IMG/VR virus record: IMGVR_UViG_3300033074_000961
Length of the DNA stretch: 64,000 nt
Direction: 5' to 3' (one strand)
Origin: a virus
Lineage: Duplodnaviria > Heunggongvirae > Uroviricota > Caudoviricetes
Shown: piece after piece, positions 9,699 through 60,918 of the stretch
Position numbering within the stretch: position 1 is the first letter of the stretch
How the letters are laid out: every line of letters begins with the position of its first letter
Position numbers and translations under genes: made by a program
The notes under the pieces: generated by a model
What the model was told of the DNA's origin: nothing
Databases searched by the model: none
The model's input: only the letters and a program-made list of their open reading frames with translations

Positions 9699-10470
9699 GG
9701 CGGAAGGTTGGGATTGGGGCCAACTTGTGCAGAGTGGCAGCGTGCCGAGTCGTGTAGATTTCCAGCACTTGCTTCTGCCGAGGGGTTAATCCTTCAAGCA
9801 GGACCGTGGAGTAGCACCCCTTGCCATCTTCCACCCACTTCATTGCCCATTCCAGTTCCTCGTACGATGCACCAATGGCATCTTCATCCGTGCGGGTGTC
9901 CGCCCACAGACCATCCGTAGGAACTGCCTCAGAGAGTTCTGGCAGCACGCCCAAGTCACGGCACATCTGCCGCACTTCGGTCTTGGTCAAGTCGGAGATA
10001 GGAGAAATGTCCACACCACCATCACCATACTTGGTGAAGAAACCGATACCAAAGTCTTCCACCTTATTGCCGGTGCCTACTACGAACGCACCCTTGCAGC
10101 ACGCCACTTGATAAAGAGCAATCATGCGAAGGCGACTCTTCGTATTGGCAAAGGCAAGGTCATTGTTGTAGTCAATGCGGACTTCTTCACGAAACGCTTC
10201 AAACGTAGTCGTAAGGTCAATCTTGTGGAAAACTACATTGTTGTAGTTATCCTGCAACCAGTCAATGTGCTTTTCACCACGACTGGTTTGGTCGCCCTTG
10301 GTTTGACATGGAAGAATGACGCAGTGGGTCGGGAGTCCCGTCATTGCACAGAGGGTGGACACCAATGCGGAATCAACACCACCCGATACGCCAATTACCC
10401 AACCTTTGGCACCATTCTTTTTTGCGTAGTTATTCAACCACGCCACGATTTCATTTGCTAGTTCTTTCAT
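9691..10470 (-). CDS. nadE: NH3-dependent NAD+ synthetase
   Basis: PP-loop GVSGGVDSALV; 259-aa length and overall NadE architecture. Confidence 0.85.
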   Translation of the reverse strand: MKELANEIVAWLNNYAKKNGAKGWVIGVSGGVDSALVSTLCAMTGLPTHCVILPCQTKGDQTSRGEKHIDWLQDNYNNVVFHKIDLTTTFEAFREEVRIDYNNDLAFANTKSRLRMIALYQVACCKGAFVVGTGNKVEDFGIGFFTKYGDGGVDISPISDLTKTEVRQMCRDLGVLPELSEAVPTDGLWADTRTDEDAIGASYEELEWAMKWVEDGKGCYSTVLLEGLTPRQKQVLEIYTTRHAATLHKLAPIPTFRRE

Positions 10471-10471
10471 A

Positions 10472-10681
10472 TTAGAAACACTCCGTCTTTTTTGTTACAC
10501 CGAATTTCTTCATTGTTCTCTTCATGTCCGCAACCGCATCCCGCTTACGTTTGAAGGGAAGTCGGTTGGTAATCCACGCATCAGCAAACATACCGGGACC
10601 AAACCAAATGGGACATGCCCATTCCCATTGCCTATCAAGGCGACGGTTGAGGGTTCTGCGATAGGAGACAATCTCTTTCAT
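10472..10681 (-). CDS. hypothetical small protein
   Basis: 69-aa ORF between nadE and pncB. Confidence 0.3.
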   Translation of the reverse strand: MKEIVSYRRTLNRRLDRQWEWACPIWFGPGMFADAWITNRLPFKRKRDAVADMKRTMKKFGVTKKTECF

Positions 10682-12204: not shown

Positions 12205-13925
12205 TTGCGTTTGATTTGATGAAAGCTGTTGCCATTGATAAAGAAAATGCCATCGCTGGTTGAGAACAACTTCATAGTGCTATCAAATGGAGGATTCTGC
12301 AACGTTTCAACCTGAGTGGCAGTGGCGAACAATTCCAATTCGTCGGGACTCGCCAGCAAAGCACACATACCATTCTCCATCACTGTGAAGTTGATAGTAT
12401 CATATGCCACGTCATCCACTTTGCGAACATCGCACGAGTTGTATGCCTTGTTGAAAATGATAATGAAGCGATCATATTGACCCTTCTTTTCACCGAGGAC
12501 CACAACTACATTCCGTTCTGCCTTGGCACCGACAATACGATACCCGTCCAACTGTGGGACGTGCTTGCTGAAACACGCACCTTGTTTGTATGGCAAGGTC
12601 AGATACATCTTGCCGAGCAAGTCCTGTACCACACAACCATCGTACATCTTGGAAGTAGTAACCGAGACGTTGGCAATTTCAATAGCACGACGAACCATTT
12701 TGTTGCCGAATGCCGTGAAGGAGTTCTCCATCAACTTACCGTGGGCAATGGTATAGATGCTGTTGTTCCTTGCGAACATTTCATTGCTCGTTGCCGTGCC
12801 AATAGGTTCACTAGCAGTAAGAGTCTTGAAGACTATCTTATTGCTATTGTCTTGTTGAGCAGTAATGAGAGTGCCATCCGATGCCGAGCAGAGAGTAATC
12901 TTCTTGGCATTATGCGTACCAATCTCTTTCTTGTTGGCATAGATATGGGTCTTAGTTGCCACGTAGTAGATGCCCAAGATTTGTTGAATTGCCAAGATAG
13001 GATTGGTATAGGCAGCGATTTCACTGACACCAATCTTATCCGTGCCTTGGATAGTGATAACTTGAGTGGGCACAAGCAAGGGCACACTACTATCTGCCAG
13101 CGGTGGAACACCACGCTCACCATTCAAGAACACTCGTTTGAACCAATCCAAGTGACGGCCCGGGATGACTTTGAAATCATTAACCGATGGAGGGACACGC
13201 ACTCCGCTATGGAATACGCTAATACCGTCGTCCATTTGCTTCGCCTTATCCTTGGGTTTGTAGTTGGGGTGAGTCCCACGATAAGGATGGATATTGGTAT
13301 AGAGCCAGAACGTCAGCACAGACCACGAGAACCAATCCGACTCAATGGTGGGATTGTAGTGCATAGTTCCACCCTTGTCAAAGGTAGTAACTTTCCTATC
13401 TCTCACCGAGTCCATAATAGCAGTTGCTCTGAACGATGGAGTGGAGTAACTATCCGTATCAATAAACCACGGCGTAAGATTGCTTCCCTTTTGTTCGGCA
13501 AGAATGTTCAACTCATTCAAGTCCACAATGAGACATTGAGCGGAGTGAACGTCGGCAACCACCTTCTGCATTTCTTTGACAAGGTGATTAACCATATGGA
13601 AGTCAATGTTGTTCGCATCCTTGAATGTGCGGGTGAAGAACTTCAAGAGCGGTTCAACGTTGTCCACGAAGCGGGTAGTGTACCCGAGCGGTTTGCCGTT
13701 CTTCGGGTCAAAGATGATTTCTTGTGGGATGACTACTTGGGGATTCTTAATCAATCCCAACTCCTGCATTTTCTTTGGCGGGAGCATCTTCTGGTCGGGG
13801 TCATGGTACAACTTATACGCCATGCCACTTTGGACATAGATTGCCGCTTCACCGCCAGCTGCCAAGTAGTTCTTGTCAGTAATGGTGATTACGCCACTGT
13901 TGCCTATTTTGACTTTCTGGTTCAT
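12201..13925 (-). CDS. protein-kinase-like (ePK/RIO/Kdo-like fold) protein with C-terminal extension
   Basis: Gly-rich loop AAGGEAAIYV, lysine in AYKLY, catalytic-loop-like IVDLNELNIL, FIDTDS (DFG-like). Confidence 0.5.
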   Translation of the reverse strand: MNQKVKIGNSGVITITDKNYLAAGGEAAIYVQSGMAYKLYHDPDQKMLPPKKMQELGLIKNPQVVIPQEIIFDPKNGKPLGYTTRFVDNVEPLLKFFTRTFKDANNIDFHMVNHLVKEMQKVVADVHSAQCLIVDLNELNILAEQKGSNLTPWFIDTDSYSTPSFRATAIMDSVRDRKVTTFDKGGTMHYNPTIESDWFSWSVLTFWLYTNIHPYRGTHPNYKPKDKAKQMDDGISVFHSGVRVPPSVNDFKVIPGRHLDWFKRVFLNGERGVPPLADSSVPLLVPTQVITIQGTDKIGVSEIAAYTNPILAIQQILGIYYVATKTHIYANKKEIGTHNAKKITLCSASDGTLITAQQDNSNKIVFKTLTASEPIGTATSNEMFARNNSIYTIAHGKLMENSFTAFGNKMVRRAIEIANVSVTTSKMYDGCVVQDLLGKMYLTLPYKQGACFSKHVPQLDGYRIVGAKAERNVVVVLGEKKGQYDRFIIIFNKAYNSCDVRKVDDVAYDTINFTVMENGMCALLASPDELELFATATQVETLQNPPFDSTMKLFSTSDGIFFINGNSFHQIKRK

Positions 13926-14701
13926 ACCACAATTGCCGCTACGGAAATATCGTCGGAATGCTTAATGCCTTCCTTCTCACATTTCCTTTTGAATGCCGCA
14001 AGACGACGGAGAACGAATTCGCCCTCGGTTGTCTTGTATCCCGTGAACTCGTCAACGAGGCTAGTCCATAGGATAGGTTCATTATCTGCACGACGAAAAC
14101 TATTGATACCATCCGAAATAACTGCAATGATGTCTCCCGGCTCCACGGTCGCATCAAAACTATATGGTTCAAGTGGCTTGGTGTTGACTTGAACAGTCTT
14201 GCCGAGGATAGTCACGGCGACTTCCTTCTTATTATCCTCTATGTTCTCGTAGGCTTGTCGCCTTAGAGGGTCAAGTTGATAAGCAAGGTAGTCAGGTGCT
14301 CCGCTAGTAAGATGGATATGGATACTATTGACGCCTAGTTTGGTTCTATGAACCAAGACACCATCACCATACATACGAGCAGTCAGTTTACCTTCCTTCA
14401 CCCACGCCACAAGCAACGTCGCATCCAATGCTTGAGAATGGAGATAAGGGAAGACATCAAATACTCGTTGGGCATTGTGGATAACATCCTGCCCCCACAG
14501 TTTGGCATCACTTTCCAATCCCAAACGAATCTGTCTCTTGGCAGACATGGCAAGACAACGAGCACCGAAGTCCACGTCGGGAGAAGCGGAGCATCCATCA
14601 CATACTACTGCATATGTCTTGCCTGCGATTTCCCCTGTGAGAGCATAGTCCTCACATACAATGTGGTCTTTGCCGATTTGATATGTACTGTTGGCGTTCA
14701 T
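13922..14701 (-). CDS. PP2C-family Ser/Thr protein phosphatase
   Basis: AVVCDGCSAS, VISDGI, DDISV metal-binding motifs. ATGA overlap with the kinase gene. Confidence 0.65.
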   Translation of the reverse strand: MNANSTYQIGKDHIVCEDYALTGEIAGKTYAVVCDGCSASPDVDFGARCLAMSAKRQIRLGLESDAKLWGQDVIHNAQRVFDVFPYLHSQALDATLLVAWVKEGKLTARMYGDGVLVHRTKLGVNSIHIHLTSGAPDYLAYQLDPLRRQAYENIEDNKKEVAVTILGKTVQVNTKPLEPYSFDATVEPGDIIAVISDGINSFRRADNEPILWTSLVDEFTGYKTTEGEFVLRRLAAFKRKCEKEGIKHSDDISVAAIVV

Positions 14702-18014: not shown

Positions 18015-18944
18015 TTACGGTAAGCGTAGTATCTCATTGTTGAAGTAATCGTTCAACATATGGAGCAGCGGACGATGGTTTTCCGAAACCTCCGCTTCGC
18101 TTAATTCTGCAAAGTTTTTCCAAGTGACATACTCAATGTCATCTGCCGCCTTGGGTGTACCGCCATTGTATTTCAATACGAAAAGGGCGGTCATAATCTT
18201 GTCTTGCTCCGAGCGGTAACGCCAATCATTAACGAAAGTGCTACCAACATACTTCGGTTCAATCACGTCAAGTCCCGTCTCTTCTTTGACTTCACGGATA
18301 GCTGCCTCTTCCATGCTCTTATCTTGAGCGGGGTCTGTGAACCCACCGGGGAAGCAGAGGGTAGAACGATTGGGTTTACGAGCAAGTAGAAGGCGTTTGT
18401 TATCGTAATCAATCACCGCCATGTCCACTGTCAACTTGAACGATGGGAATTGATTTTGGACTGCGTAAACAATACCTTCACGAAAGTCTTGGGTGGGTTT
18501 GGCCTTGATGCCGATGCGTCGGCGAATTTCACTCGCCGAAATGAATTTGCTAGGCACAAGTTCAATGGTGGGAAACCCACCCTTGTAGGAATTGATGAAA
18601 CTATCCCGACTGCCATACATGACCGCTTTCAATTTGGGTCCGATGGTCTGCGAAATGAGCTTGTCAAGGTTCTTGCTCCAAAGGTCGTTGTCGCCAACGT
18701 CATTCAGATAGAGAACTTCAACATCCCGATACTTTTCCTCAACCATTGCCTTGCGGATGCCGAAGTCAAACGGGTTGTTGGCAGTACACTTGAGCGGGGA
18801 TAGACCGAGAACGATGATTACTCGGGGATGGGCGTTGCGGACAATCTCGATGATTTCTTGATGTCCCTCGTGGAGGAATGGCGATTGGAATCTCGCCACA
18901 ATAACGCCAACGTCTGCATTTTGTTCAGTCACTTTCATAGTCAC
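18015..18944 (-). CDS. nadM: bifunctional NMN/NaMN adenylyltransferase – Nudix (ADP-ribose pyrophosphatase) NadM-type
   Basis: N-terminal ARFQSPFLHEGH (HxGH NMNAT motif as in NadM). C-terminal Nudix box REVKEETGL. Confidence 0.75.
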   Translation of the reverse strand: MTMKVTEQNADVGVIVARFQSPFLHEGHQEIIEIVRNAHPRVIIVLGLSPLKCTANNPFDFGIRKAMVEEKYRDVEVLYLNDVGDNDLWSKNLDKLISQTIGPKLKAVMYGSRDSFINSYKGGFPTIELVPSKFISASEIRRRIGIKAKPTQDFREGIVYAVQNQFPSFKLTVDMAVIDYDNKRLLLARKPNRSTLCFPGGFTDPAQDKSMEEAAIREVKEETGLDVIEPKYVGSTFVNDWRYRSEQDKIMTALFVLKYNGGTPKAADDIEYVTWKNFAELSEAEVSENHRPLLHMLNDYFNNEILRLP

Positions 18945-37707: not shown

Positions 37708-39006
37708 TCATACTGCAATAGGTGCTTTGATAGCGGGGTGAGACTTATAGTCCACCAATTGTATGTCCTCAAACTTGAAATCCATCAGATTGCGGACATT
37801 GGGGTTGATGACTAACTTGGGCAGAATCTTGGGCGTTCTGCTTAGTTGTTCCTTGACTTGTTCCAAATGATTCTCATAGATATGCAAGTCTCCATAGGTA
37901 TGAGTGAATACTCCCGGCACCATATTGACACAATGAGCGATCAATGCAGTCAGTAGGCAATAGGACGTGATATTGAAAGGTACACCGAGGAAGGTGTCAC
38001 AACTGCGTTGGTAGAGCAAGCAATTAAGCCTTCGGCGAGGAACACCTACATTATCCAAATTCTTATGTTGATCTTCTTCCGTTTTACCGAGGTATTTGGG
38101 GAGCAATCCATACTTGCCATTATGATACACTTCGATTCTTTCTGCTATTGACAGAACTTCGGTATGAAAATGAAACATACAATGACATGGAGGTAGAGCA
38201 CAATGGTCAACCCAATAAGGATGCCAAGCACTAACAATTATGCGACGGTCATCGGGATTGGTCTTGAGCTTATCTACAACTTTCTTGAGTTGGTCCACTG
38301 TTCCATATTGGGTAGAGTCTAGTGGGTTATCGGCATTTCGTGGGACATAATAAGGAAATGCTCTCCACATTCCACCATAAGTTCCTTCCCCAAGTTCGCC
38401 CCACTTCTCAGCAAACTTGGCGTCGGTCTTAATGCGGTGAATGAATTCCGCCTGTGTATATTGCTCTGGTTCTGGACCGTGATGATGTTTGGTAAAGTCG
38501 GTAGTGCGTGTTCTTTCCTTGTTATACCAATCAACATATCGTTTATACGCCCATTCATCCCAGATATGAACGTCATTGTCCACAAGGTATTTGATGTTAG
38601 TATCCCCACGGATGAACCACAGCAATTCATGGACGATTGCTTTGAAGAAAATCTTCTTGGTAGTAAGAATAGGGAAGGCATCAAGGTCAATGTCGAACTT
38701 CGCTTGTGCTCCAAAGACCCCAATGGTATCAACCCCTGTACGATTCTTCTTACGTTTCCCTTCACGGAGAATAAGATTCAACAAATCATTGTATTCCGAA
38801 TCTACATGATTGTAAAATTGAATGACTTCTTCACAGGGAAGACATGGATGAACTTCTAGTCCACAGTTTGAACAGAGTTCTCTATCAATCTCTTCCTTTA
38901 CAACTTTGGGTAGAGATTCTTCAACACCCAGCTTTTGTGCAAGAGTCTTGAGCATCGCTTTTTCGTCGTTGGTTAATTCACTCATTTCCAGTACTTGGTT
39001 ATCCAA
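37708..39006 (-). CDS. thyA: thymidylate synthase family enzyme (ThyA / dNMP hydroxymethylase-type) with ~100-aa N-terminal Cys-containing extension
   Basis: FKAIVHELLWFIRGDTN, IVSAWHP, LPPCH active-site motif. N-terminal CSNCG...CLPCEE. Confidence 0.7.
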   Translation of the reverse strand: MDNQVLEMSELTNDEKAMLKTLAQKLGVEESLPKVVKEEIDRELCSNCGLEVHPCLPCEEVIQFYNHVDSEYNDLLNLILREGKRKKNRTGVDTIGVFGAQAKFDIDLDAFPILTTKKIFFKAIVHELLWFIRGDTNIKYLVDNDVHIWDEWAYKRYVDWYNKERTRTTDFTKHHHGPEPEQYTQAEFIHRIKTDAKFAEKWGELGEGTYGGMWRAFPYYVPRNADNPLDSTQYGTVDQLKKVVDKLKTNPDDRRIIVSAWHPYWVDHCALPPCHCMFHFHTEVLSIAERIEVYHNGKYGLLPKYLGKTEEDQHKNLDNVGVPRRRLNCLLYQRSCDTFLGVPFNITSYCLLTALIAHCVNMVPGVFTHTYGDLHIYENHLEQVKEQLSRTPKILPKLVINPNVRNLMDFKFEDIQLVDYKSHPAIKAPIAV

Positions 39007-40243: not shown

Positions 40244-40577
40244 AAGGGATTAGTTTATAGTCATAGTCTTCTATGATATGGGGAGTTTCCCACGAAGACC
40301 ATTCATTACAGGTGACAACTTCATAGATACCATCTTTGCACTCATCAAGGTTGATGATGTTTTTGACTACTTCATCAGCACCAGCATTATGACAATCTTC
40401 ATAGAGAAGATTATATCCTTGGCATTTGCGCCGAAGATAACGGAGGGTTTTCTTGATATGTATTCCACTCCCGTCGTGCCATACCGAAGTTGTAAGTCGG
40501 ACAACACACTTGGGCGGGGGTTCTTTATACTTGGCAACCAAGTCATCAAAGGTTAGTGCTGTGATTTCTTTGCTCAT
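40203..40577 (-). CDS. hypothetical protein
   Basis: 124-aa ORF. Confidence 0.35.
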   Translation of the reverse strand: MSKEITALTFDDLVAKYKEPPPKCVVRLTTSVWHDGSGIHIKKTLRYLRRKCQGYNLLYEDCHNAGADEVVKNIINLDECKDGIYEVVTCNEWSSWETPHIIEDYDYKLIPYEETTPLRPVDGK

Positions 40578-41176
40578 CGGGCAACTACTTTGATGAAGTA
40601 GGTTAGTTCAATCTTCTCACCCACCGTAGAGGATACATCCTTGATAAGTTGACCTATCGTAACCGTATCCTCACGGACAAAGGGTTGATTGAGCAGACAT
40701 ATCTGGTTCACTCGCTTCTGAATTTTTCCTTGAATGATCTTGTCCCGCACCGGAGCAGGTTTGCCCTCCGTCTCACGGATGTATTCACTTGCCCACTTCA
40801 AGCGAACATCCTCTGGAATGGACTCCATAGAGATGTACTCGGGAGCAACAGGAGCAGAGACAATATGCATACAGATATTTTTTGCCAATGTAATGAAGGC
40901 ATCACTCTTGGCAACGAAGTCGGTCTGACATGCAAGCACAATCATTGCGCCAACACGGTTGTTGTGGACGTAAGAGTACACAATCTTGGTGTTGGCAGTG
41001 CGATTCGCCATCTCATTGGCATCTGCTTGCTTCTCGGCAATCAGAATCTTGACCGCTTCCGCCTCATCACCATTCGCTCGTTGAAGAGCTTCGTTGATCT
41101 TATTGATAGGTGAAAAGGTGATAGCACGGATATGCTTTACCTTCTCCACATTGGTCATTGTCTTTTCAACATTCAT
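40574..41176 (-). CDS. tsf: translation elongation factor Ts (EF-Ts)-like protein, short form
   Basis: N-terminal UBA-like VKHIRAITFSPINKINEALQ...AEAVKILIAE, core LACQTDFVAKSDAF (compare EF-Ts CETDFVA+N..F), C-terminal LLNQPFVREDTVTIGQLIKD. Confidence 0.55.
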   Translation of the reverse strand: MNVEKTMTNVEKVKHIRAITFSPINKINEALQRANGDEAEAVKILIAEKQADANEMANRTANTKIVYSYVHNNRVGAMIVLACQTDFVAKSDAFITLAKNICMHIVSAPVAPEYISMESIPEDVRLKWASEYIRETEGKPAPVRDKIIQGKIQKRVNQICLLNQPFVREDTVTIGQLIKDVSSTVGEKIELTYFIKVVAR

Positions 41177-41864: not shown

Positions 41865-42656
41865 TCATTTTGGATATTCAGGTATCATTGCAAGGATTTT
41901 ATCCTTATCTTCGGTAAACTTCCACGCACCCTTGGAAACCCATCTAGTGCGCTCAACGGTGTTGTCTTGAATTTGAGCTTCAAAACTCTCTTTCACAATG
42001 AGACGCCCGTTCTTCTCACCATCGGTGTAATCCGTGGCCCAGTTCTTACCCGCTTGGTGAATCATCTCATGCTTGTCCGAAGTGGACTTGCCGTGAAGCT
42101 CCTTGTGCGAGTACAGGGATTGAGCAACCATTGAGACAGAGTTGCGAGCACAATCTTGATTACGCCAGATGAAGTAGTTCATCACTTCAACTCTGTCAGG
42201 AATGGTGAATACACGGGCATCAAAGAATGCCAGATGCTTTCGCATCCTCGCTTCTTTCAAATCCATTGGCAGTGTTTGAGTAATCTTAAACGCTCTCTCA
42301 AGCCGACATTGATTGAATTCCGCAGTCATGATAGATGCCGCCACAGAACACATTTTCTGTAGGTTGCCGTCAAACCATGCACAAGTACCAATGTCAACGA
42401 AGTCGGTCAAAAGTACACTGATCTCGTCAGATTGGGTATAGGCGAAGACCGCCCCCTGAAGTTCTGGGAGCATCGCAATGATTGCGGCGTCAATGTCCTC
42501 AAAGAGTCCTTTGTCAAAAGGTTTCTCAAGTCCTCGGGTGTACGTATGAAATGCCTTACCATCCAGACGGATGATTGTGTAAGTGCGTCTTGGCAGTAAG
42601 AACCGAGTACGGTCCTCATACTGCCCCTTCATTCTGTCGCCAAGTGCGTCTTGCAT
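41865..42656 (-). CDS. Thg1-like protein (tRNA-His guanylyltransferase / 3'-5' nucleotide polymerase family)
   Basis: RLDGKAFHTYTRGLEKPFD, AYTQSDEISVLL, FFDARVFTIP, NYFIWRNQDCARNSVSM follow the Thg1 family motif pattern. Confidence 0.6.
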   Translation of the reverse strand: MQDALGDRMKGQYEDRTRFLLPRRTYTIIRLDGKAFHTYTRGLEKPFDKGLFEDIDAAIIAMLPELQGAVFAYTQSDEISVLLTDFVDIGTCAWFDGNLQKMCSVAASIMTAEFNQCRLERAFKITQTLPMDLKEARMRKHLAFFDARVFTIPDRVEVMNYFIWRNQDCARNSVSMVAQSLYSHKELHGKSTSDKHEMIHQAGKNWATDYTDGEKNGRLIVKESFEAQIQDNTVERTRWVSKGAWKFTEDKDKILAMIPEYPK

Positions 42657-46185: not shown

Positions 46186-47193
46186 TTACTTTCCAGCGAT
46201 GGGTTTCATGCCCGAACGATGGCGTCCGAACACCTTTTTACGCAACTCCACAATTGTATCACAAAGGTCTTCCTTGCCATACTGCGGACGGGAGTTCACG
46301 TCTCGTGCAATCAATCGCTTAATGAATGCACACATTTCTTCGGGTACATCTTTAGGCACCATCTTACGCTCAACGTATTCTGGACCACCCGATAAAGCAT
46401 AAATCATCGTCATTCCAAGACTGTAATAGTCAGACTCGGGAATGAGGGGTTTGCCAGCTATTTCTTCGGGAGGGGCAAAGTAAGGAGTGAACCCCTTTGC
46501 TTCGGCAGAACCCGTGGGTTTCACCATTGACAAACCGAAGTCCACCAGAACTGCCATGTGCCTATCCTCTTGCACGATGATATTCTGGGGTTTCAAATCG
46601 CCATGCACCACGCCATGACGATGAATGTAATTAAGAGCATTGAGGATTCTTTCAGTAATCCACGCAACGGTTTCTGGTTCCATTGCTCCTACTCGTTTCA
46701 CTTCTTTCTCAAGAGTGAGACCGGGAATGTAGCTCATGACGAGCAGTACCCGTCCATCTTCCAACTTATACAAATCCCTCATGGCGGGGAGAGCGTAGTG
46801 TCTCAAATCCCACAACACTCGGCACTCTTGAACAAGCATATCCACATCATCCAAAGAGACGTTAGAGCAGTCTTTGATACAGACCAATTCTTTGAGAATG
46901 GAATGCTCTGCTTTGTAGGTGCGACCAAACCCGCCTTCGGCAATAACAGATTGAACTTTGTAAGGTCCAATTATCTTGGTAGTGCCTTCGATACGTTCAC
47001 GGTCAAAATCACGACGCTTACGGGGGTCGGTAAGAATGTCATGTGCTTCGTTGAGGGAACGGGCATGAGACCCCACAGTGGCATGGTCTAAATCAGGATG
47101 ATGTTCCTTCATTAGTGCCCGATATGCCGCCTCAATCACTGAGGGACTTGCTTTCGGGTGGACTTGGAGGACTTGATACCAGTCGTTTTTCAT
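46186..47193 (-). CDS. J-domain (DnaJ) – Ser/Thr protein kinase fusion
   Basis: N-terminus DWYQVLQV...MKEHHPD (J domain with HPD). Kinase HRHGVVHGDLKPQNII, DFG, APE-like PPE. Confidence 0.65.
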   Translation of the reverse strand: MKNDWYQVLQVHPKASPSVIEAAYRALMKEHHPDLDHATVGSHARSLNEAHDILTDPRKRRDFDRERIEGTTKIIGPYKVQSVIAEGGFGRTYKAEHSILKELVCIKDCSNVSLDDVDMLVQECRVLWDLRHYALPAMRDLYKLEDGRVLLVMSYIPGLTLEKEVKRVGAMEPETVAWITERILNALNYIHRHGVVHGDLKPQNIIVQEDRHMAVLVDFGLSMVKPTGSAEAKGFTPYFAPPEEIAGKPLIPESDYYSLGMTMIYALSGGPEYVERKMVPKDVPEEMCAFIKRLIARDVNSRPQYGKEDLCDTIVELRKKVFGRHRSGMKPIAGK

Positions 47194-50957: not shown

Positions 50958-52514
50958 TTACACCACAACACGGTCGTAACGAGGATTGTTCACCGTCTCG
51001 TAAACGATGTCCATAGGACTGAAGCTCTTCGCTGAGAGCAGCGACTTCAAGATGCTTGGTGAGCATCCCGAGACAAGGGCAGTGCCATTGTCGTCCGCAC
51101 GGATTGGGAAGTTATCGTTGCGGGAGGCAACGTTCCACCACACGATGCGAGGCAGCGTGTATCCATGCTTCTCGTACTTCTCACGGATGACTTGGAAGTT
51201 GGTCTTGCTGTTGCAACCCGAGGCTGCATCAAACTCCATGTCGGAGACCACATAGAGAACGCTTGGCATATCCTTTGCCGCAACACGGTTCTGCACCGCA
51301 GTACGGAGGATAAGGTCAAACGCAGACTGGAGATTCGTGGACTGAGCCCAGTTGGACTTGTCCATGTTATCCCACTTCTCAAGCAAGGTTTGTCCAACCA
51401 ACTTTTGGAAGGTTGGCGAGCTGGAGAAGTTCATCCAGAAGTCCTTGAAAGGACCAACGTTACGCTCTGCGAAGTAAATCGCAAGCGAGACCGACACGAG
51501 AATTGGCAGCATGTCATGGGTGAACATGGAGCCAGACACGTCGGCAATAACAATACCATAGTGCTCGTTACCTTCCAGCCAGTTTGGCATGGACTTCCAT
51601 TGCAGGTCTGCCTGCTTTGCGCTCATGGCGTCTGGACGACCATGCATGACGATGGAACGCAGGATTTCGTATGGGAATACGGCACCGGCATTCATCTTCT
51701 TCTCGCCCTTCTCAACGGACTTGAGATAGGCAGCGTAACGCTCCTGATCGTGCTTACCGAACGCCTTGCGGTAGTTCAGCGAAGCCTTGGAAGGAACGTG
51801 CTCGAAGTCAATCTTGGCCCAGTCGCCAGCGCACATCTTGACTTCAAGTACATCAATGTGCTTACGCAGCGCAGAGAGAATCTTGCGGTAACGCTTTGGA
51901 GTCAGTTCAAGAGCCTCACGGGTCTTGCGAGCAAGACGACGGGACTCCGCAGAACTGGTGTTCTCGGACTTGAGCCACTTGGCAAGCAGCGAGACGGACT
52001 CGCCCTTCTTCATGTTCTTGAGGTCTGCCTTCAACTGGGTAGCGAAAAGGGCATAGACTTCCGACTCAAGTGGGGTTCCCACGAGAGCATAGAGGTCATC
52101 ATAGCGTCCGAAGAACGCCACGTTCTCAAGGTTCTTGCGAGCAACGTCGGTGTAGTTCTGGGCGAGCCAGTTCACCAACGTACGGAAGGTCTTACGCTCT
52201 CCCTGTCCCTCACGTACGTCACGGAGGTAGAACAGAATCTTGGTAGCCAAGAGACGGTCCTGTGCAAATGCACGGGAGAAAAGATTGATTACGTCCTGCT
52301 CGGCACGAGAGCGGATTGCTCCACCAGCACCGAAGAAGTCGAGGACATAGTTGAGCGTGCTCTTGTTGGTCAGAGCACCCTTCTCGGTATAACCGAGATT
52401 TCCCTGATTCTGCATAGCAGACAGGAATGGGTTCTGTGAGAGCACAGTGGTTTGAGGCACAAACTGAGTTGAGCGGGTCTTACGAGTCACGTTCTTCATA
52501 ACGGTTCCTTTCAT
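50958..52514 (-). CDS. TROVE-like N-terminal domain + C-terminal vWA protein (Ro60/Rsr-like or DUF2828-type)
   Basis: C-terminal MIDAS IVIADVSGSM. N-terminal GYTEKGALTNKST...LDFF and REGQGERKTFRTLVNWL resemble TROVE motifs. Confidence 0.45.
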   Translation of the reverse strand: MKGTVMKNVTRKTRSTQFVPQTTVLSQNPFLSAMQNQGNLGYTEKGALTNKSTLNYVLDFFGAGGAIRSRAEQDVINLFSRAFAQDRLLATKILFYLRDVREGQGERKTFRTLVNWLAQNYTDVARKNLENVAFFGRYDDLYALVGTPLESEVYALFATQLKADLKNMKKGESVSLLAKWLKSENTSSAESRRLARKTREALELTPKRYRKILSALRKHIDVLEVKMCAGDWAKIDFEHVPSKASLNYRKAFGKHDQERYAAYLKSVEKGEKKMNAGAVFPYEILRSIVMHGRPDAMSAKQADLQWKSMPNWLEGNEHYGIVIADVSGSMFTHDMLPILVSVSLAIYFAERNVGPFKDFWMNFSSSPTFQKLVGQTLLEKWDNMDKSNWAQSTNLQSAFDLILRTAVQNRVAAKDMPSVLYVVSDMEFDAASGCNSKTNFQVIREKYEKHGYTLPRIVWWNVASRNDNFPIRADDNGTALVSGCSPSILKSLLSAKSFSPMDIVYETVNNPRYDRVVV

Positions 52515-53599
52515 ATACTTTCTGTTGTTCGGGTTTGTTCAAGATACATACGTGTTATCACGAGATAGCTGTTCGTATCTTCAACGAAAATACTACTAGA
52601 TGCAGCCCTTGACGTTGGCAACCTGCATTAAGCGTTCCTGCTGTACGCATCTAAAATTGGGCTAGGTCCAGACGTTTACTGTTCGTCCTCAGAGCACTAT
52701 GAGATTTCTCCTAACTGAATAGGTGGAGTATGCCAGTATCTCCGTTCTTTTTTCATGGTTAGATGAATTTAGTTTTGTTGCTGTACGGACCTAAATTGAT
52801 TGTAGCGTTGGTATCGGCATTTACCTTACCGAAAGTCCCTTTTTCACGGACTAACACTACGAAATTCAAAGAACAATCTACAAATTCAAGGGGTTTCAGT
52901 AAAGAAACCCCAAACAAGATGTCAGGATTTACCGTTGTCTCGGTGGCGTGTTTACGTCTGCCCTTGACGAGTGCTCCGAAAACTAACTCTCTATCGGGCA
53001 CTACTCCGAGGTCTTTTGGGACCGGGAACCACCCCGTAGTCTTGTCAACCGTTGACTGGACGGTTTGCTGCAAAGTCAATTGGTTACACAGTGCAGCCGC
53101 TTGTTCTCTTTTTTCTTTTATTTATGTCTTGCTGTGACGACATCTTAATTCAGCAAACCACTCGGTCTGCCGAAAGTTTGAAAGAACAACGAGATGCCTT
53201 TGCTTTTTCAATAGCGTATGCTGTACGCATCTCAAATCATTGTGGCGAGAAGTATATCACACTCGCCGAAATTGTCAAGCCCTACTTCAAACTTTTTTCA
53301 ACAGAGTTTGTTTTGGGTCCAAGTAGGTAATGGCGTCATCCAATTCAAGTTGAGCGTCCACGACCTTACTGGCAAACAACGCATTGTGATTCTTTCCGCT
53401 ATTCAGGCGCAAAGCATCACCCATCAAACGGTCTGCTTCGAGCAGGAGCGAATGAATCTTACGAGCACGTTGTTTATCGTTCATTGTGGAGCAAACAATA
53501 CCACAATACTGTGAACTTGTCAAGAGGGATTTTAGCGTTCTCTCTTATTGGGAGACTTCGGGTCTCTGAGGATAAGTATATGCCAAAAACCAAAAACGA

Positions 53600-54385
53600 T
53601 TATTTTTTCGTTTTTCTTTGAGAGTATGGTTTGTCCACATTATGCAAGTTCTGTTCTGCACACACCCGCTCGACATCATTCGAAATTGATTGAAGTCTCT
53701 GCTTTGCTAATTCGACATAAGTATCGTTAACTTCAATGCCCACGTAGTTATGGTCCATTGCTGCCGCAGCAACAAGAGTGGTGCCGATACCGCAGTAAGG
53801 GTCAAGCACGTTCAATCCTCTGCGTTCATCGGCAATGCTGTAAATACAACGCACTGGTAATTCAATAGGAAATGGTGCGGGATGTTCCTTGAATCCACTC
53901 TCGGGGCGGATACGCCAAATGGAAGTCATCTTGGCATGTCTGCTTTCCAGTTCATCACCTTTGGTCAATCCCTTTTGCATCCAATAGATTCTTTCTTCAA
54001 CTTGCCAGAATCTCCATCCTCTTACGTTGCCAGCAATGATTCTATCCCAAATGAGTTCTTGGCGAATGCCCCACATGGTTTTGTTCAACCAATCCAACGG
54101 ATGAATCATCTTACCATCTTGCCAACGGAGTTTGTGGTTGTAGAAGATATGCCCTCCCGGCTTGGTGACTCTCCACAACTGGTCCAACACTTGCACTTGC
54201 TGCTTCTGATACTCTTCTTCGGGCATGTTATCAGAGTGAACACCATATTCAACTTTGCCCACCAACTCCCCCGATACTTTCTGCTTATTGTATGGCGGCG
54301 AGGTAACGGTGATGTCAAAAAAGTCATCCTCAAACTGCCGCAGTACAGTAACAGCATCCCCAACGTAAATCTTGTTGTTATCCAT
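53600..54385 (-). CDS. DNA methyltransferase, β-class amino-MTase (SPPY motif IV before FxGxG motif I); N4-C or N6-A
   Basis: VTSPPY then DPYCGIGTT. Confidence 0.65.
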   Translation of the reverse strand: MDNNKIYVGDAVTVLRQFEDDFFDITVTSPPYNKQKVSGELVGKVEYGVHSDNMPEEEYQKQQVQVLDQLWRVTKPGGHIFYNHKLRWQDGKMIHPLDWLNKTMWGIRQELIWDRIIAGNVRGWRFWQVEERIYWMQKGLTKGDELESRHAKMTSIWRIRPESGFKEHPAPFPIELPVRCIYSIADERRGLNVLDPYCGIGTTLVAAAAMDHNYVGIEVNDTYVELAKQRLQSISNDVERVCAEQNLHNVDKPYSQRKTKK

Positions 54386-54454: not shown

Positions 54455-55276
54455 GTGGCATACTCGTGGGCGATGATACAATTGTTCAACGAGGACTTCC
54501 TCAAGGCAGATTTTACTTCCATCCCACCAATCAATTTGGTGGTAACGTCCCCGCCGTACAATGTAGGCATTGAATATGACAAGCATGACGACACAATGAC
54601 CTATGAGGAATATCTTGTTTGGTGCAAAAAGTGGATTGCTAAGCTTTATTCATTGATGGCGGATGACAGTCGTATCTGCATAAACATTCCATTCTCCATT
54701 ACACCGATTCACTTGAATAAAGTCAAGGGTGCCGAGGACATCAACTACCCCGTATCAGCAGACTACACCGAAATCTGTCAGGAAGTAGGATTCAAATACT
54801 ATCGTAATGTCATATGGCAGAAGTTAGGAAGCAATAAGACGTGTTGGGGAAGTTGGCGGTCTGCCCGTGCTCCTTTCATCATTGACCCCAACGAGTGTAT
54901 CCTTATCTTTTACAAGGGGAATTGGAAGCGAAAAGAAAAGGGCAAGTCCACCATTCGTGGTCGTGAATTCATGACTTATGTAAAGAATCTGTGGCACATG
55001 CATCCCGAGACACAATCCAAGCATCCCGCAGCCTTTCCGTTGGAACTACCGAATAGGTGTATCAAACTTCTATCCTATGAAGGAGACCTTGTGTGTGACC
55101 CATTCTTAGGGTCTGGCACAACAGGCGATGCCGCAGTCAGATTGAAGAGAAGTTTTGTAGGTGTGGAGAAGAGCGAAGAGTATTTCAAAATGGCAAAAGA
55201 AAGGATTGATACAGCAGAAATTCAAACTTCTTTGATTGCATCAATCATGCCAGATGGTGACGAAGATGATGATTGA
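54455..55276 (+). CDS. DNA methyltransferase, β-class amino-MTase (second SPPY enzyme)
   Basis: VTSPPYNVG then CDPFLGSGTT. Confidence 0.65.
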   Translation: MAYSWAMIQLFNEDFLKADFTSIPPINLVVTSPPYNVGIEYDKHDDTMTYEEYLVWCKKWIAKLYSLMADDSRICINIPFSITPIHLNKVKGAEDINYPVSADYTEICQEVGFKYYRNVIWQKLGSNKTCWGSWRSARAPFIIDPNECILIFYKGNWKRKEKGKSTIRGREFMTYVKNLWHMHPETQSKHPAAFPLELPNRCIKLLSYEGDLVCDPFLGSGTTGDAAVRLKRSFVGVEKSEEYFKMAKERIDTAEIQTSLIASIMPDGDEDDD

Positions 55277-56336
55277 ACCAAATCTGTTCTACGAGAAAGG
55301 ACTGATTCATGCCAGAGGACACCACGATCCTGTCGGAAAGTGTTTGACCTTGTTGGCAGGTTCGCAGGGCGTTGTTTGCTCTAATCCACGAAGCGTTTTC
55401 TTCGGATGTCCCGAAATTCAAAAGGAATACGAACGAAATATCCTCAACAGTACGGCGAGTGCTGGTAATGATACTCAGTACTATCTTCAAAAAGACGTAA
55501 AGTGTTATGCCACTGATAACCGAGATGAACTTGATGTTGCGGCATCTCTTATTGCGGGTGCATTGATGAAGGGCGATACGTTGTGGAGAAATAAGGACGG
55601 AATGAGTATGAGGCAAATTCGTTCTACTCTACTCATCGAAGCTCCTGTTGAAAATTCAGATGAAGATATTCAACGATTCAATGCCGCAGCAACTCGGGCA
55701 TTTAACATACTTTCGGCAGACCGAGATGGAATGATTGACATTTTATCGAAGGCATGGCACTTCAAACAAATTCTTGGCACTAAGAACGAAGACCGATTCA
55801 TTATTCCCCGACAAGTGGACCACGGGATTGCTAAACTTTTCAACCTTCTCTGTGAAGAGGAAGAAGCATATGACCTTTCCATCCCTACAGATGGATATAC
55901 AATTTCTGACAAGATGGCAAACGACCTGTTCCACCAAAGCACGAGTAAAAAAGTCAGAAGTGGTATCATCAAGGACAATCTTCAAATGTCCAATACTCGT
56001 TCAGGTCAATCCAGCAACAATCACCAACGTCCACGGTTCGATTGCTTGCTTGCCATGCAGTACATCCCCTATTTGGTATGTGGAATTGTGCCCTACCACA
56101 AAATTGTATCACATTTCCGTCATACCGATGGGGGATGGGTATTGAAGAGAGTTCCCATAGACCATTTCCAATACATTCTCTCTCCCACCGAAACAATTCC
56201 TCCCCAAGACATCTCCCCCGACGATAAAGCGGAGATGGAAAACTTTGCACAACTAGTTAAGGGAGAGTTTTTTCCGAAACTCCTTGACAAACGACCAAAA
56301 AAAGCGGATACTACGCCGCAAATTGAAGTATGGTGA
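55263..56336 (+). CDS. hypothetical protein between methyltransferase genes
   Basis: 366-aa ORF. Start trimmed to the Met past the upstream stop. Confidence 0.4.
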   Translation, partial: KMMIEPNLFYEKGLIHARGHHDPVGKCLTLLAGSQGVVCSNPRSVFFGCPEIQKEYERNILNSTASAGNDTQYYLQKDVKCYATDNRDELDVAASLIAGALMKGDTLWRNKDGMSMRQIRSTLLIEAPVENSDEDIQRFNAAATRAFNILSADRDGMIDILSKAWHFKQILGTKNEDRFIIPRQVDHGIAKLFNLLCEEEEAYDLSIPTDGYTISDKMANDLFHQSTSKKVRSGIIKDNLQMSNTRSGQSSNNHQRPRFDCLLAMQYIPYLVCGIVPYHKIVSHFRHTDGGWVLKRVPIDHFQYILSPTETIPPQDISPDDKAEMENFAQLVKGEFFPKLLDKRPKKADTTPQIEVW

Positions 56337-57274
56337 AACCGAAGACGAAACTTACTCCTGTCCGCTACCCCGGCGGCAAGTCCAACGCTTTGAAGTTCTT
56401 GGACAAGCACCTACTGCGTTCATTTTCCACCTACCGTGAACCATTCTTTGGTGGTGGGTCTGTCGGTCTCTACCTGATGCAGTTCAACAAGGATGCAGTC
56501 TATTGGGTCAACGACTTGTTCTATCCCGTGTACTGTTTCTGGAAGGTTCTCTACGAGCGTCCCGATGAAATGGTGAAGTATCTCCTTGCTCGTCATGAGA
56601 CGTATTCCAAACCGCAAAGCGGGATTGCTGGACAAGACATAAAGGTAAAAGGAGTGCCTACCAAGGCTGCCGAAGCTGCTCGGGCACTACATGCATTCTG
56701 CCGCCAGCAAATTCAAATCAATATCGAACAGAAGGACGAGTTTCATACCGCTTGCCATTGGTATATCCTCAACAAGACTTCATACTCAGGTATGGCAATG
56801 ATTGGTTCATATGCGCCTCTTGCATGGGACCAGAACTTCACCATCAATTGCATCAACAATCTTCCCAAGACCACCGCACTTATGCGGAGCGTAAAGGAAG
56901 TTCGCATTACCAATTTGGATTATGCCGACATGCTGAAACCCGATGGCGACCACGACGAGAATACGTTTGTATTTCTCGACCCGCCCTACAAAATCCCCCA
57001 CAGTCTCTACGGGGATGGTGGAGACATGCATGAAGGATTTGACCATCGCCGTTTCTATGAGGAAGTCATCAAGTGTCCAACTCGCTGGTTGATTACCTAT
57101 AACAAAGACCCTGAAATTGACGCATGGTTCTTAGGATACCATAAACTCCCGTGGGAACTTCAGTACACCATGAAGGCGGCAAAGCGTGAGGGGCAAGAAG
57201 GGTCTGCCAAAACTGGCAAATCAGGTAAGAAGGGACGAGAGTTATTGATAGCAAACTATCCGCTTACAGCCTGA
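56330..57274 (+). CDS. dam: Dam-type (α-class, D12) DNA N6-adenine methyltransferase
   Basis: YPGGK, EPFFGGGSV (motif I), FLDPPY (motif IV). Confidence 0.7.
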   Translation: MVKPKTKLTPVRYPGGKSNALKFLDKHLLRSFSTYREPFFGGGSVGLYLMQFNKDAVYWVNDLFYPVYCFWKVLYERPDEMVKYLLARHETYSKPQSGIAGQDIKVKGVPTKAAEAARALHAFCRQQIQINIEQKDEFHTACHWYILNKTSYSGMAMIGSYAPLAWDQNFTINCINNLPKTTALMRSVKEVRITNLDYADMLKPDGDHDENTFVFLDPPYKIPHSLYGDGGDMHEGFDHRRFYEEVIKCPTRWLITYNKDPEIDAWFLGYHKLPWELQYTMKAAKREGQEGSAKTGKSGKKGRELLIANYPLTA

Positions 57275-59416: not shown

Positions 59417-59620
59417 ATGGCAGAACCAACACGTAAAAGTTACTCGCTTCGCCAAGCAATCAATGCTTTCGCAGGCGTAGATACCGAGCAATCCATCCGC
59501 AACGACACTTGTACCATGTGTCGGAAACCCGCACTTGCCTTCAAAGATGAACTAAGCAAGAAAGAGTTCACCATCAGCGGCATGTGCCAAGAGTGCCAAG
59601 ACAAAGTTTTTGGCTCTTGA
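59417..59620 (+). CDS. small zinc-ribbon protein
   Basis: CTMCRK...CQECQD. Confidence 0.4.
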   Translation: MAEPTRKSYSLRQAINAFAGVDTEQSIRNDTCTMCRKPALAFKDELSKKEFTISGMCQECQDKVFGS

Positions 59621-59655
59621 CAACTGACGATAAAACGCTAAACTCAAGCACAATT

Positions 59656-60918
59656 ATGGCAACTCTAATCAAAGAAGTAAAGCTGATCATGACCGAGGTT
59701 GGCACCAACAACAACAAGTGGTGGACCGGACAGCTTTTTGACGATGGCACAGTCAAAGCGACTTGGGGACGTGTCGGATACTCTGGTGACTCGGGTGAAT
59801 GGCAGGGTGGACAATCGTATTTGGATAAGAAAGTCAAGGAGAAGATCAAGAAGGGTTATACTGAGTTGAAGACTGTTGGTAACGCTGGTATTGCGCCGTC
59901 CAGTTCTGCTCCCGTTCGCAATGCAGACCTTCACCAGATTGCCAAAACTCAACTTATCAAATCTTCCAACCCGACGCTGGAACGTTTGATTAAGCGTTTC
60001 GTTGAAGCAAACGTCCACAAGATTACTCGTGACACGCAAATCACCTACAATTCATCAACGGGTTTGTTTGCCACGCCTCTCGGTATTGTCACGATGGAAG
60101 GTTTGACCGATGCTCGTGACTTGCTCGCCAAACTTGCTCCTATCGTTCGTGGTCGTCGCTTCGGGTCCGAAGCAGATGCTCTTTTGAGTAAGTATCTTCG
60201 TCTCATTCCTCAACATTTGGGTATGGGGCGATTCTCTTGCCAGTCGGTTATCCCCGACGACAATGCTTTGCAGAAGCAGAGCGACTTGATTGACTCTTTG
60301 GAGTCGTCCTATCAAGCAATGTCCACGCAACCGGCTCAAGCGGGTCAACCCGTCAAGAAGCAGGAAACCGTGTTCCAAGTGGACTTGGACGTACTCACCG
60401 ACCAATCCGAGCGCAATCGTTTGGAACGTTATTTTGAAACGTCCAAGAAACGTATGCACGGGTATGACAACGTGCGAGTGAAGGAAATCTTCGCCGTCAA
60501 TGTCCACGATATGACTCGTGGGTTTGAAAACAGCACCACTCCCATTAAAGAAGTGTTCCACGGCACTTCCCAAGCAAACTGCCTCTCCATTCTCAAGAGT
60601 GGACTCAAGGTGTCGCCTCCGTCCACTGCTGCCATCGCTGGCAAGATGTTCGGCAACGGCATCTATGGCGCAATCAACTCCACCAAGAGCCTTGGTTATA
60701 CTTTCAACCGTTGGGGTCAAGGTGGAGTGGGCGATGCGGGATGGCTCTTCATCTGTCAGTTCGCAATGGGCAAGATTTACGAGACTCGGCACAGCTGCTC
60801 TCCGCAACGGGGTTACGACTCTGTATGGGCGAAGGCTGGCGGCAGTCTGGCGAATGATGAATTGATCGTCTATCGCAATACCCAAGTCAAAATCACTCAC
60901 CTTTTGGAGTGCAAATAA
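59656..60918 (+). CDS. WGR domain – PARP-like catalytic domain ADP-ribosyltransferase
   Basis: N-terminus ATWGRVGYSG (WGR). C-terminus VFHGTSQANCLSILKSGLKV...GKMFGNGIYGA...NDELIVY parallels the PARP1 H-G-S / Y / E catalytic core (LLWHGSR...GYMFGKGIYFA...YNEYIVYD). Confidence 0.65.
   Translation: MATLIKEVKLIMTEVGTNNNKWWTGQLFDDGTVKATWGRVGYSGDSGEWQGGQSYLDKKVKEKIKKGYTELKTVGNAGIAPSSSAPVRNADLHQIAKTQLIKSSNPTLERLIKRFVEANVHKITRDTQITYNSSTGLFATPLGIVTMEGLTDARDLLAKLAPIVRGRRFGSEADALLSKYLRLIPQHLGMGRFSCQSVIPDDNALQKQSDLIDSLESSYQAMSTQPAQAGQPVKKQETVFQVDLDVLTDQSERNRLERYFETSKKRMHGYDNVRVKEIFAVNVHDMTRGFENSTTPIKEVFHGTSQANCLSILKSGLKVSPPSTAAIAGKMFGNGIYGAINSTKSLGYTFNRWGQGGVGDAGWLFICQFAMGKIYETRHSCSPQRGYDSVWAKAGGSLANDELIVYRNTQVKITHLLECK

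Follow-up and report, generated by a model that had tools for sequence, protein, structure and literature searches.

A phage DUF2828 protein with a predicted Ro60-like fold adjoins conserved ACAGCA hairpins, candidate partner RNAs of its family

The window analysed here is a 64,000-nucleotide (nt) stretch of viral DNA (IMGVR_UViG_3300033074_000961), and all coordinates are positions in it. Its minus strand carries at 50958..52514 an open reading frame (ORF) of 518 amino acids (aa), exactly as an earlier note on this DNA had claimed, which by Pfam encodes a protein with the domains DUF2828 and DUF7788, Ro60-like in its predicted fold. The earlier note had taken it for a TROVE-like, Ro60/Rsr-type protein with structured repeats beside it and a possible part in RNA quality control or RNA repair, an interpretation that our analysis partly supports. 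Just upstream of the gene lies a non-coding block with several copies of one RNA hairpin motif, marked by the sequence ACAGC(A). We describe the protein, the hairpins and the linkage between them across phages, and then weigh what they might do.

The family of the protein is clear. DUF2828 (PF11443; E 9.5e-43, 147 bits against a cut-off of 29) is followed by DUF7788 (PF25043; aa 321-499, E 4.7e-48, 163.8 bits against a cut-off of 27.1), both above the curated cut-offs, and PHROG 850 (phrog_850, 'RNA-binding protein') matches the full length (E 2.7e-149). DUF7788 covers the C-terminal vWA domain (51018..51554, minus strand; Pfam, family alignments, hhalign), whose MIDAS the earlier note had recognised correctly: the residues D325-x-S327-x-S329, T393 and D425 showed no variation in 51 close or in 75 diverse homologues. 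The true start of the protein is probably the ATG at 52499, giving 513 aa, since M6 hardly varies in the family alignment, 513 aa is the length found in close relatives and a ribosome-binding site, AAAGGAA, lies upstream. There are more than 7,600 homologues of the window protein, and both domains were present in all 120 of those listed. In GenBank, 711 phages encode homologues with 30-44% identity across more than 90% of the protein; those of cluster L mycobacteriophages carry the annotation 'Ro-like RNA binding protein', and gp130 of phage Bas63 is 40% identical. Among the homologues listed, the nearest metagenomic relative is 94% identical. No database record of the exact sequence was found, and megablast and blastn searches with the locus and with the RNA block gave zero matches in GenBank phages. 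Judged by its sequence, the window protein adds a new member to a family that is known and already annotated as 'Ro-like'. The gene belongs to a long run of minus-strand genes, its syntenic relatives lie on metagenomic contigs of 88-364 kb, and the source is evidently a jumbo phage.

The adjoining stretch had been described as 1.1 kb without genes and with structured repeats. Only ~770 nt of it are gene-free (52515-53286), after which a 65-aa ORF follows (53287-53484). The repeats themselves were confirmed as copies of a single hairpin motif, four clear ones and one possible degenerate one, at 52535-53239 on the gene's strand. A pattern search and a stem finder did not detect the ACAGC hairpin motif in the rest of the window. 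When the gap was aligned with the gaps of five related phages, the non-coding blocks were nearly invariant, with proteins just ~80% identical. The hairpin design is (UU)-[7-nt 5' strand, N-A-G-R-Y-N-N]-[R-N-A-C-A-G-C-A]-variable insert-A-rich-[complementary 3' strand]-G.

We built a covariance model, R1, from 50 short modules of other metagenomic viral loci, with the window kept outside the training set, and ran it on both strands of the whole window with filters off. The four best matches were the four clear modules, and besides these there was no match better than E 0.2. All modules lie on the minus strand, and A1, C and D were also located by the pattern and stem finder. The best match of the whole window is module A1 (53191..53233; GAGAUGC-GUACAGCA-...-GCAUCUC-G; R1 53239-53185, E 1.4e-5), which is conserved in the related loci L002-L007. 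It is followed in rank by module C (52597..52653; UAGAUGC-GUACAGCA-...-GCAUCUA-G; R1 52659-52591, E 9.6e-4), conserved in the alignment of related loci, and by module D (52541..52581; AAGAUAC-GAACAGCU-...-GUAUCUU-G; R1 52587-52535, E 1.5e-3), which has a fold z-score of -2.9 and ends ~25 nt ahead of the gene's ribosome-binding site. Module B is a 131-nt version (52663..52793; UAGGUCC-GUACAGCA-[three inner hairpins, conserved GUAAA]-GGACCUA-G) located by alignment, RNAalifold and R1, the latter with a partial match (52799-52735, E 0.16); it is almost invariant among relatives whose proteins are just ~80% identical. A possible degenerate mini-module, A2 (53124..53145; 5-bp stem AUGUC/GACAU, loop GUCACAGCAA; z -2.6), was noticed by eye and is a weak candidate that R1 did not report.

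Comparison between loci, of which each carries 2-7 modules, demonstrates a structured RNA motif with covariation. The 50 short modules align cleanly, with ACAGC and the G after the stem invariant. Every position of the 7-bp stem shows 2-5 pair types, and G-U pairs are tolerated. The outermost pair, which the search did not enforce, is paired in 47 of the 50 modules by four pair types (AU 24, UA 14, GC 6, GU 3). RNAalifold independently predicts the same 7-bp stem, whose closing end has a conserved A-G...C-U base and whose 3' side is A-rich. For module B, RNAalifold on nine relatives showed that the closing stem and the inner helices both contain compensatory changes. A U-G pair flanking the stem was considered as part of the motif and dropped, being paired in just 23 of the 50 sequences. 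Nothing in Rfam 15 matches the ACAGCA motif, and no description of it was found in the searchable literature, where papers on DUF2828 concern just plants and a tardigrade. On the window, ARAGORN and Rfam gave no tRNA, Y RNA, YrlA, ROOL or GOLLD; Rfam had nothing at gathering score in the window and nothing relevant at E<=10 in 52300-53800.

The link between the motif and the DUF2828 gene is two-way and strand-specific. In 80 IMG/VR loci chosen by protein similarity, down to 40% identity, R1 gave 146 matches at E<=0.1 in 76 loci, a result that partly contains training sequences; all 146 lay on the gene's strand and none on the opposite one, most of them less than 600 nt upstream, or just downstream, of the gene. 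The window, the reverse scan, Bas63 and ten GenBank phages are free of training sequences. These ten were Felixounavirus H12, LeBron, Listeria 805405-1, Campylobacter CP30A, Enterococcus iF6, Staphylococcus S-CoN_Ph5, Synechococcus B23, Bacillus 2S-4, Fusobacterium phiKSUM and Klebsiella phi1_175008, with hosts in E. coli, Mycobacterium, Listeria, Campylobacter, Enterococcus, Staphylococcus, Synechococcus, Bacillus/Rossellomorea, Fusobacterium and Klebsiella. At E<=1 they yielded 25 matches, at least one per phage and 25/25 on the gene's strand. In the reverse direction, we searched IMG/VR by the RNA pattern alone, AGATGCNNACAGCAA-N15-45-GCATCTNG, and obtained 74 sites. The stored stretch held a DUF2828 gene for 50 of them, and at all 50 assessable sites the motif was co-oriented with it (41 upstream, 8 downstream, 1 abutting), mostly less than 850 nt away; about 20 of the other 24 sites are near an end of the stored DNA. 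Two regions of 50 kb served as negative controls, one of phage T5 (NC_005859) with 25 tRNAs and 8 'stable RNAs of unknown function', the other of phage Bxz1, covering a canonical TROVE Ro60 gene and a YrlA-like RNA. R1 had 0 matches in either, and neither contains a DUF2828 gene.

Whether the protein is Ro60-like depends on the level at which one looks. The Pfam models found DUF2828 and DUF7788 in the window protein and not the TROVE domain (PF05731) expected by the earlier note, even at E<=10. The TROVE hidden Markov model (HMM) likewise had no match at E<=1 in LeBron gp53 or in the Felixounavirus homologue, whereas the positive control Bxz1 gp220, a genuine phage Ro60, matched TROVE at E 9.4e-50 and vWA_Ro60 (PF25045) at E 4e-54. 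Searches of PDB sequences, one with phmmer and two with profiles, did not find Ro60 for the window protein, an NCBIfam search gave no route to it, and BLASTP against Bxz1 gp220 aligned the DVSGSM MIDAS motif alone. By HMM, the window protein is a DUF2828 + DUF7788 protein and not a member of the TROVE family. Its vWA domain has the intact MIDAS pattern DxSxS...T...D, and DVSGSM aligns with the MIDAS of Ro60. When the AlphaFold2 model of the protein was submitted to Foldseek, all of the top 11 structures were Ro60/Rsr/TROVE structures, with full-length alignments (E 1.6e-7 to 1.2e-4), and Ro60 structures ranked first by two different methods, well above all vWA-only proteins. The model points to a helical-repeat ring closed by the vWA domain, in which the N-terminal alpha-helical domain (aa ~56-307; 51594..52349, minus strand) would be the TROVE-like helical-repeat part. 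The protein is thus predicted to be Ro60-like in fold, and of the likeness proposed earlier this part stands, while its N-terminal part is not visible in the sequence by HMM or hhalign, so that it could hardly have been read off the letters. The resemblance of the DUF2828 family to Ro60/Rsr is not new: HHpred matches to Rsr or Ro60 have been published for Listeria phage protein CKA15_055 (PMC12282133), and structural similarity to Ro60 for Bas63 gp130 (bioRxiv 10.1101/2024.10.10.617714). The earlier note had named one combination as fatal to its reading, a protein assigned only to DUF2828 with neither TROVE similarity nor associated RNA. The locus does not show it, because the protein is Ro60-like in its predicted fold and conserved structured RNAs adjoin the gene.

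The hairpins share the architecture of Y RNAs rather than their recognition motif. As in Y RNAs, the closing stem is formed from the 5' and 3' ends, and it lies less than ~2 kb from the Ro-like gene on the same strand. What stays invariant in the hairpins is ACAGC(A), and the Ro-binding motifs GGUCCGA (metazoa) and GNCGAAN0-1G (bacteria) are not present; near-matches occur in module B (GGUCCGU) and module D (ACGAAC) and are not kept across the family. The Rfam covariance models for Y RNA and YrlA (RF00019, RF02553) found nothing in the window at gathering score. Partner RNAs resembling Y RNAs had been anticipated; the conserved structured RNAs do adjoin the gene, but by Rfam they are not Y RNAs and they carry ACAGCA instead of CGAA/GGUCCGA.

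Other phages carry the motif on tRNA-like RNAs. A gap of 360 nt follows the Ro-like gene gp53 of LeBron and contains, one after the other, a module, a tRNA-like element, another module and a terminator. In Rfam the tRNA-like element reaches 39.8 bits as YrlA, below the gathering score of 69 (E 1.8e-7); its T and D arms are clear, and it has its own closing stem, GGACUC/GGAGUCC, followed by UAGCAGCAA. Loci L026 and L070 and Synechococcus phage B23 contain RNAs of 110-125 nt that Rfam calls tRNA, one of which is labelled 'tRNA-OTHER' in the GenBank record of B23. They have normal acceptor, D and T arms, some with encoded CCA ends, and their anticodon loop is replaced by a capped hairpin, [3' strand]-G-UU-[5' strand], then NNACAGCAA. 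This capped hairpin corresponds exactly to a module whose two ends have been joined, so that the layout of LeBron/YrlA is circularly permuted, and a scan found at least 30 distinct permuted elements with a T-loop motif just downstream. These two layouts indicate that the conserved unit is the helix with the ACAGCA strand, repeatedly grafted onto tRNA-like bodies. In bacterial YrlA, the Ro-binding module is likewise attached to a tRNA-like body (Chen et al. 2014, PMC4201824). The lineage of the window has simple and multi-hairpin versions alone, and no tRNA-like domain with T/D arms was found in the window. A further arrangement was seen at L070:5403-5519, where a complete tRNA-Ile(GAU) (73 bits) is nested in an ACAGCA module, with the closing stem UAGGCGU/GCGCCUA, then GAACAGCA, then the tRNA and an A-rich tail; it suggests that the module can flank a genuine tRNA precursor.

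On this evidence the locus most likely encodes a Ro60/Y-RNA system of a divergent kind, which has a recognition motif of its own. We lean, with some reserve, towards a ring-shaped Ro60-like RNA-binding protein with four to five docking RNAs encoded upstream, forming a particle that acts on the RNA-decay or defence machinery of the host. The helical-repeat domain of the DUF2828/DUF7788 protein would be closed by the MIDAS vWA domain into an RNA-binding ring, and the 0.7-kb non-coding stretch just upstream would encode the four to five small structured RNAs. Stem and ACAGCA platform would serve as the docking site for the protein, in the role that the stem with GGUCCGA or CGAA has in Y RNAs. Distally the RNAs vary: in the window this part is either a plain hairpin or, in the 131-nt module, a multi-hairpin, and in other phages it is a tRNA-like body. 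It may be an adaptor, a gate or a decoy. The resulting particle would probably act during infection on host RNA decay or defence, in or around the phage tRNA economy. By analogy with Ro60, we infer that the RNAs are transcribed and processed, that the protein binds them directly and that the particle has a cellular target. A precedent exists in phage phiLo, whose Ro60, a canonical TROVE protein, binds two Yrl RNAs encoded upstream, and together they attenuate the host PNPase (PMC12135203). In Listeria phage CKA15, the 2 kb upstream of the Rsr-like gene yield hyper-abundant non-coding transcripts from that gene's strand, which the authors of the study regarded as possible Y RNAs (PMC12282133).

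The sole experiment on a member of the family concerns Bas63 gp130, which counters the ppl defence even when a plasmid or T7 supplies the protein on its own (bioRxiv 10.1101/2024.10.10.617714). It points to counter-defence rather than to the RNA-repair role put forward earlier. A bolder extension, which we regard as doubtful, is that the RNAs with ACAGCA stems, including the tRNA-like forms, are an unrecognised and widespread class of phage small RNAs and the cognate ligands of DUF2828 proteins, and that a phage Y-RNA particle with tRNA-like adaptors or decoys neutralises host nucleases or defence. If true, this would be an RNA-guided or RNA-baited form of anti-defence, directed for example against ppl, which Bas63 gp130 counters, or against tRNA-targeting immunity.

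Several points weigh against the particle as we have drawn it. Single-sequence folding of the window modules is unremarkable (z-scores -0.6, -2.0, +0.5 and -2.9), so the case rests on comparison, and the E-values of R1 are only roughly calibrated. Four IMG/VR stretches have the motif in large tRNA arrays, co-oriented with the tRNAs and with no DUF2828 gene within 3-6 kb. On the protein side, homology to TROVE at the profile level is confined to the vWA domain: hhalign, given a DUF2828 profile built from 75 sequences and a TROVE profile built from 32, aligned that part alone (columns 277-462 with 350-535, probability 52.7%, E 1.4e-4) and saw none in the N-terminal helical domain. Since the TROVE HMM failed as well, the ring is a prediction, from a model of moderate confidence (predicted local distance difference test, pLDDT, 74.9; predicted template modelling score, pTM, 0.64). 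Since gp130 works without phage RNAs, at least one activity in the family is independent of them. Lastly, the region of the related Listeria phage 805405-1 that corresponds to the source of the abundant CKA15 transcripts holds one ROOL RNA and three ACAGCA modules. The ROOL RNA (L089:1461-2012, PP101686.1; RF03087, 90 bits against a gathering score of 99.1, E 2.8e-17) shares the strand of the DUF2828 gene and lies ~1 kb upstream of it. It probably accounts for the hyper-abundant 'CKA15_059-061' transcripts, of which the hairpins would not be the sole source. A general link of ROOL or GOLLD to DUF2828 was considered and rejected, as ROOL was seen in the Listeria phage only and both were absent from 20 other loci. 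The same Listeria locus has an RtcB ligase gene 1.3 kb downstream of the DUF2828 gene.

Some of these points feed other explanations. The hairpins might be generic punctuation of phage tRNA arrays, for example signals by which RNase E, III or P would govern processing or stability, next to which DUF2828 is merely co-located as an unrelated protein. Many DUF2828 loci do lie inside tRNA arrays with modules interspersed among the tRNAs, and the four array sites distant from any DUF2828 gene, the module that encloses a complete tRNA-Ile and the RNA-independent function of gp130 would all fit. Yet the window and its closest relatives have modules and no tRNA array; LeBron, CP30A, S-CoN_Ph5 and phiKSUM have modules at the gene with few or zero tRNAs nearby; the tRNA-rich T5 region and the Bxz1 region have no modules; and 50/50 assessable sites were co-oriented with DUF2828, mostly within 850 nt. 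We consider this explanation unlikely. Even less probable to us is that the hairpins form a cis-acting structured 5' untranslated region of the gene's own mRNA, serving autoregulation of translation or stability by the protein itself or by a host factor, so that no separate small RNAs exist. In its favour, most loci have the modules on the gene's strand and less than 600 nt ahead of the start codon, module D ends shortly before the ribosome-binding site, and a consensus scan gave no strong promoter between modules and gene. It sits poorly with LeBron, S-CoN_Ph5, B23, Felixounavirus/Bas63 and several IMG/VR loci, where modules lie downstream or kilobases off among tRNAs, with the tRNA-like RNAs that incorporate the element along with acceptor stems and encoded CCA ends, and with a copy number of 2-7 per locus. 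The module in the tRNA array of Bas63 (MZ501086) is at 82233-82302, and it has a paralogue.

The protein could also be a vWA/MIDAS protein for protein-protein contacts or for the virion, such as a cochaperone or a particle component, with a Ro60 likeness that is convergent or a modelling artefact. The lack of a TROVE signal in sequence and profile and the moderate pLDDT of the fold model would agree with this, as would the mention of CKA15_055 in the structural-protein proteomics section of the CKA15 paper (PMC12282133) and the description of ppl, the proposed target of gp130, as a DNA-degrading system (bioRxiv 10.1101/2024.10.10.617714). We give this idea little credence, as Ro60 structures come first by two methods, over the full length and well above vWA-only proteins, the likeness to Rsr/Ro60 was independently published for CKA15_055 (by HHpred) and for Bas63 gp130 (by structure), and the tight linkage to a structured RNA would otherwise go unexplained. 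Finally, the repeats might act as DNA, for instance in recombination, homing or replication, or as sites for the adjacent DNA methyltransferases; three such methyltransferase genes adjoin the region, and homing-endonuclease genes are near some related loci. An orientation that is absolute relative to gene and tRNAs (146:0, 25:0 and 50:0), the tolerance of G-U pairs, stems that vary freely in sequence while pairing is kept and the embedding of the element in tRNA-like transcripts make a role at the DNA level very improbable.

The non-coding block has some further features. The consensus scan gave a strong sigma-70-like promoter on the minus strand (53251..53278; TTGACA-16-TATACT, 11/12 matches, TG extension); as a consensus match, the site at 53278-53251 would start a transcript ~10 nt before module A1. 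At the corresponding position, directly before A1, locus L002 (2280-2368), the closest relative for which upstream sequence exists, has an 89-nt tRNA, Thr-AGT by ARAGORN, with a CCA end. The same kind of scan placed a terminator-like hairpin, GGGGUUUC..GAAACCCC followed by a U-rich tail, between the A1 block and modules B-D (52890..52911, minus strand). The region 52880-53250 folds better than shuffled controls (z -2.97). The stretch 52890-53110 (minus strand), between A1 and the terminator-like hairpin, has a counterpart only in the closest relative, L002; its sole Rfam match, a weak one to CC0734 (E 0.35), was dismissed as chance. A 106-aa ORF at 52759-53079 was rejected as a gene, since it starts with TTG, matches no family, is uncalled in relatives and overlaps conserved RNA modules. 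The small 65-aa ORF on the minus strand, which separates the RNA block from a methyltransferase gene, is 97% identical to a called gene in L002; Pfam and PHROG gave nothing for it, and it is probably a neighbour and not part of the system.

Directly beyond the RNA block stand three DNA methyltransferase genes, at 53600-54385 (-), 54455-55276 (+) and 56330-57274 (+), two of N6_N4_Mtase type and one D12-class Dam-like, in a divergent arrangement conserved in relatives. The 'RNA-repair toolkit' that the earlier note saw nearby is thin, with a Thg1-like gene ~8 kb off, an ATP-dependent ligase ~15 kb off and a histidine phosphatase. The Thg1-like gene (tRNA-His guanylyltransferase / 3'-5' polymerase; 41865-42656, minus strand; Pfam E 4.7e-27), also present in L001, is a candidate for tRNA 5'-end repair. 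These repair-type genes stand among NAD-salvage, kinase, PARP and methyltransferase genes. They include a set for NAD+ salvage and synthesis (PRPP synthetase 2724-3686, NAD synthase 9691-10470, NAPRTase 10678-11874, NUDIX 18015-18944) and a protein with PARP catalytic and WGR domains (59584-60918, plus strand; E 1.3e-22 and 1.5e-4), conserved in L003 and L005. A fusion of DnaJ (J-domain) and Ser/Thr protein kinase (46186-47193, minus strand; E 1e-14 and 3e-35) occurs in all syntenic relatives, and a PP2C phosphatase gene lies at 13922-14701. We also noted an elongation factor Ts domain protein (40574-41176, minus strand; E 1.8e-25) and a thymidylate synthase (37708-39006, minus strand) whose Pfam match starts only at residue 71. 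In other DUF2828 loci, a skipping-rope RNA (RF02924, 62 bits) was found in a tRNA array near the gene (L028:6182-6278), and two phage contigs have tmRNA genes 1-2 kb upstream of it (L020:736-1148, L021:1704-2099).

Ro60 with its Y RNAs is a conserved RNA-surveillance particle that has been studied from humans to bacteria, and Ro60 is an autoantigen in lupus and Sjögren's syndrome. Ro60 binds Y RNA on its outside and the ends of misfolded RNAs in its central cavity. To our knowledge, partner RNAs of Ro60 are known only for canonical TROVE proteins. Our results indicate a much larger, phage-borne sister lineage (thousands of sequence clusters, 711 cultured phages) with its own family of partner RNAs and a different recognition motif. 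The lineage takes in Felix O1-like and P100/A511-like phages, phages of Enterococcus, Staphylococcus and Campylobacter and the cluster L mycobacteriophages. It offers RNA candidates that can be mutated, for the hyper-abundant non-coding transcripts of a Listeria phage, for the 'tRNA-OTHER' or undetermined genes in phage tRNA arrays and for the mechanism by which Bas63 gp130 acts against bacterial defence. The covariance model R1 could be used to annotate ACAGCA RNAs across phage genomes.

Phage versions of Ro60 itself are known from Thermus phage phiLo, with Yrl1 and Yrl2, and from cluster C mycobacteriophages, whose Ro (Bxz1 gp220) is accompanied by a YrlA-like RNA. With Ro60/Rsr and Y RNAs, the system in the window shares a predicted helical ring with a MIDAS vWA domain and small structured RNAs within ~1 kb of the gene on the same strand; with Y RNAs, it shares a stem made from the 5' and 3' ends and a conserved single-stranded motif beside it. 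It differs from Ro60/Rsr in having no Pfam match to TROVE or vWA_Ro60, both of which are found in Bxz1 gp220 at E ~1e-50, and from Y RNAs in carrying ACAGC(A) instead of CGAA or GGUCCGA and several copies per locus. Around the Bxz1 Ro gene, the ACAGCA model matches nothing. Several DUF2828 lineages have a tRNA-like domain on the RNA, as YrlA does, but these tRNA-like versions keep the normal order of a tRNA, with the element in place of the anticodon loop. Stable RNAs of phage tRNA clusters are also known from T4 (species 1 and 2). The ACAGCA hairpins resemble the stable RNAs of T5 and the ROOL, GOLLD and skipping-rope RNAs in being non-coding, interspersed among phage tRNA genes and co-oriented with them. 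However, the T5 RNAs (L170:10284-21566; RNA I, III, IV, RNA1-3, RNA2H and RNAX) do not match the ACAGCA model and are a separate set, and the hairpins are much smaller and follow one protein family. Within the DUF2828/DUF7788 family (LeBron gp53, Felixounavirus, CKA15_055, Bas63 gp130), whose members bear the label 'Ro-like RNA binding protein' or 'RNA-binding protein' in GenBank phages, the window protein is a straightforward member with the same two Pfam domains, and what our comparison of sequences adds to this family is a candidate for a family-wide partner RNA.

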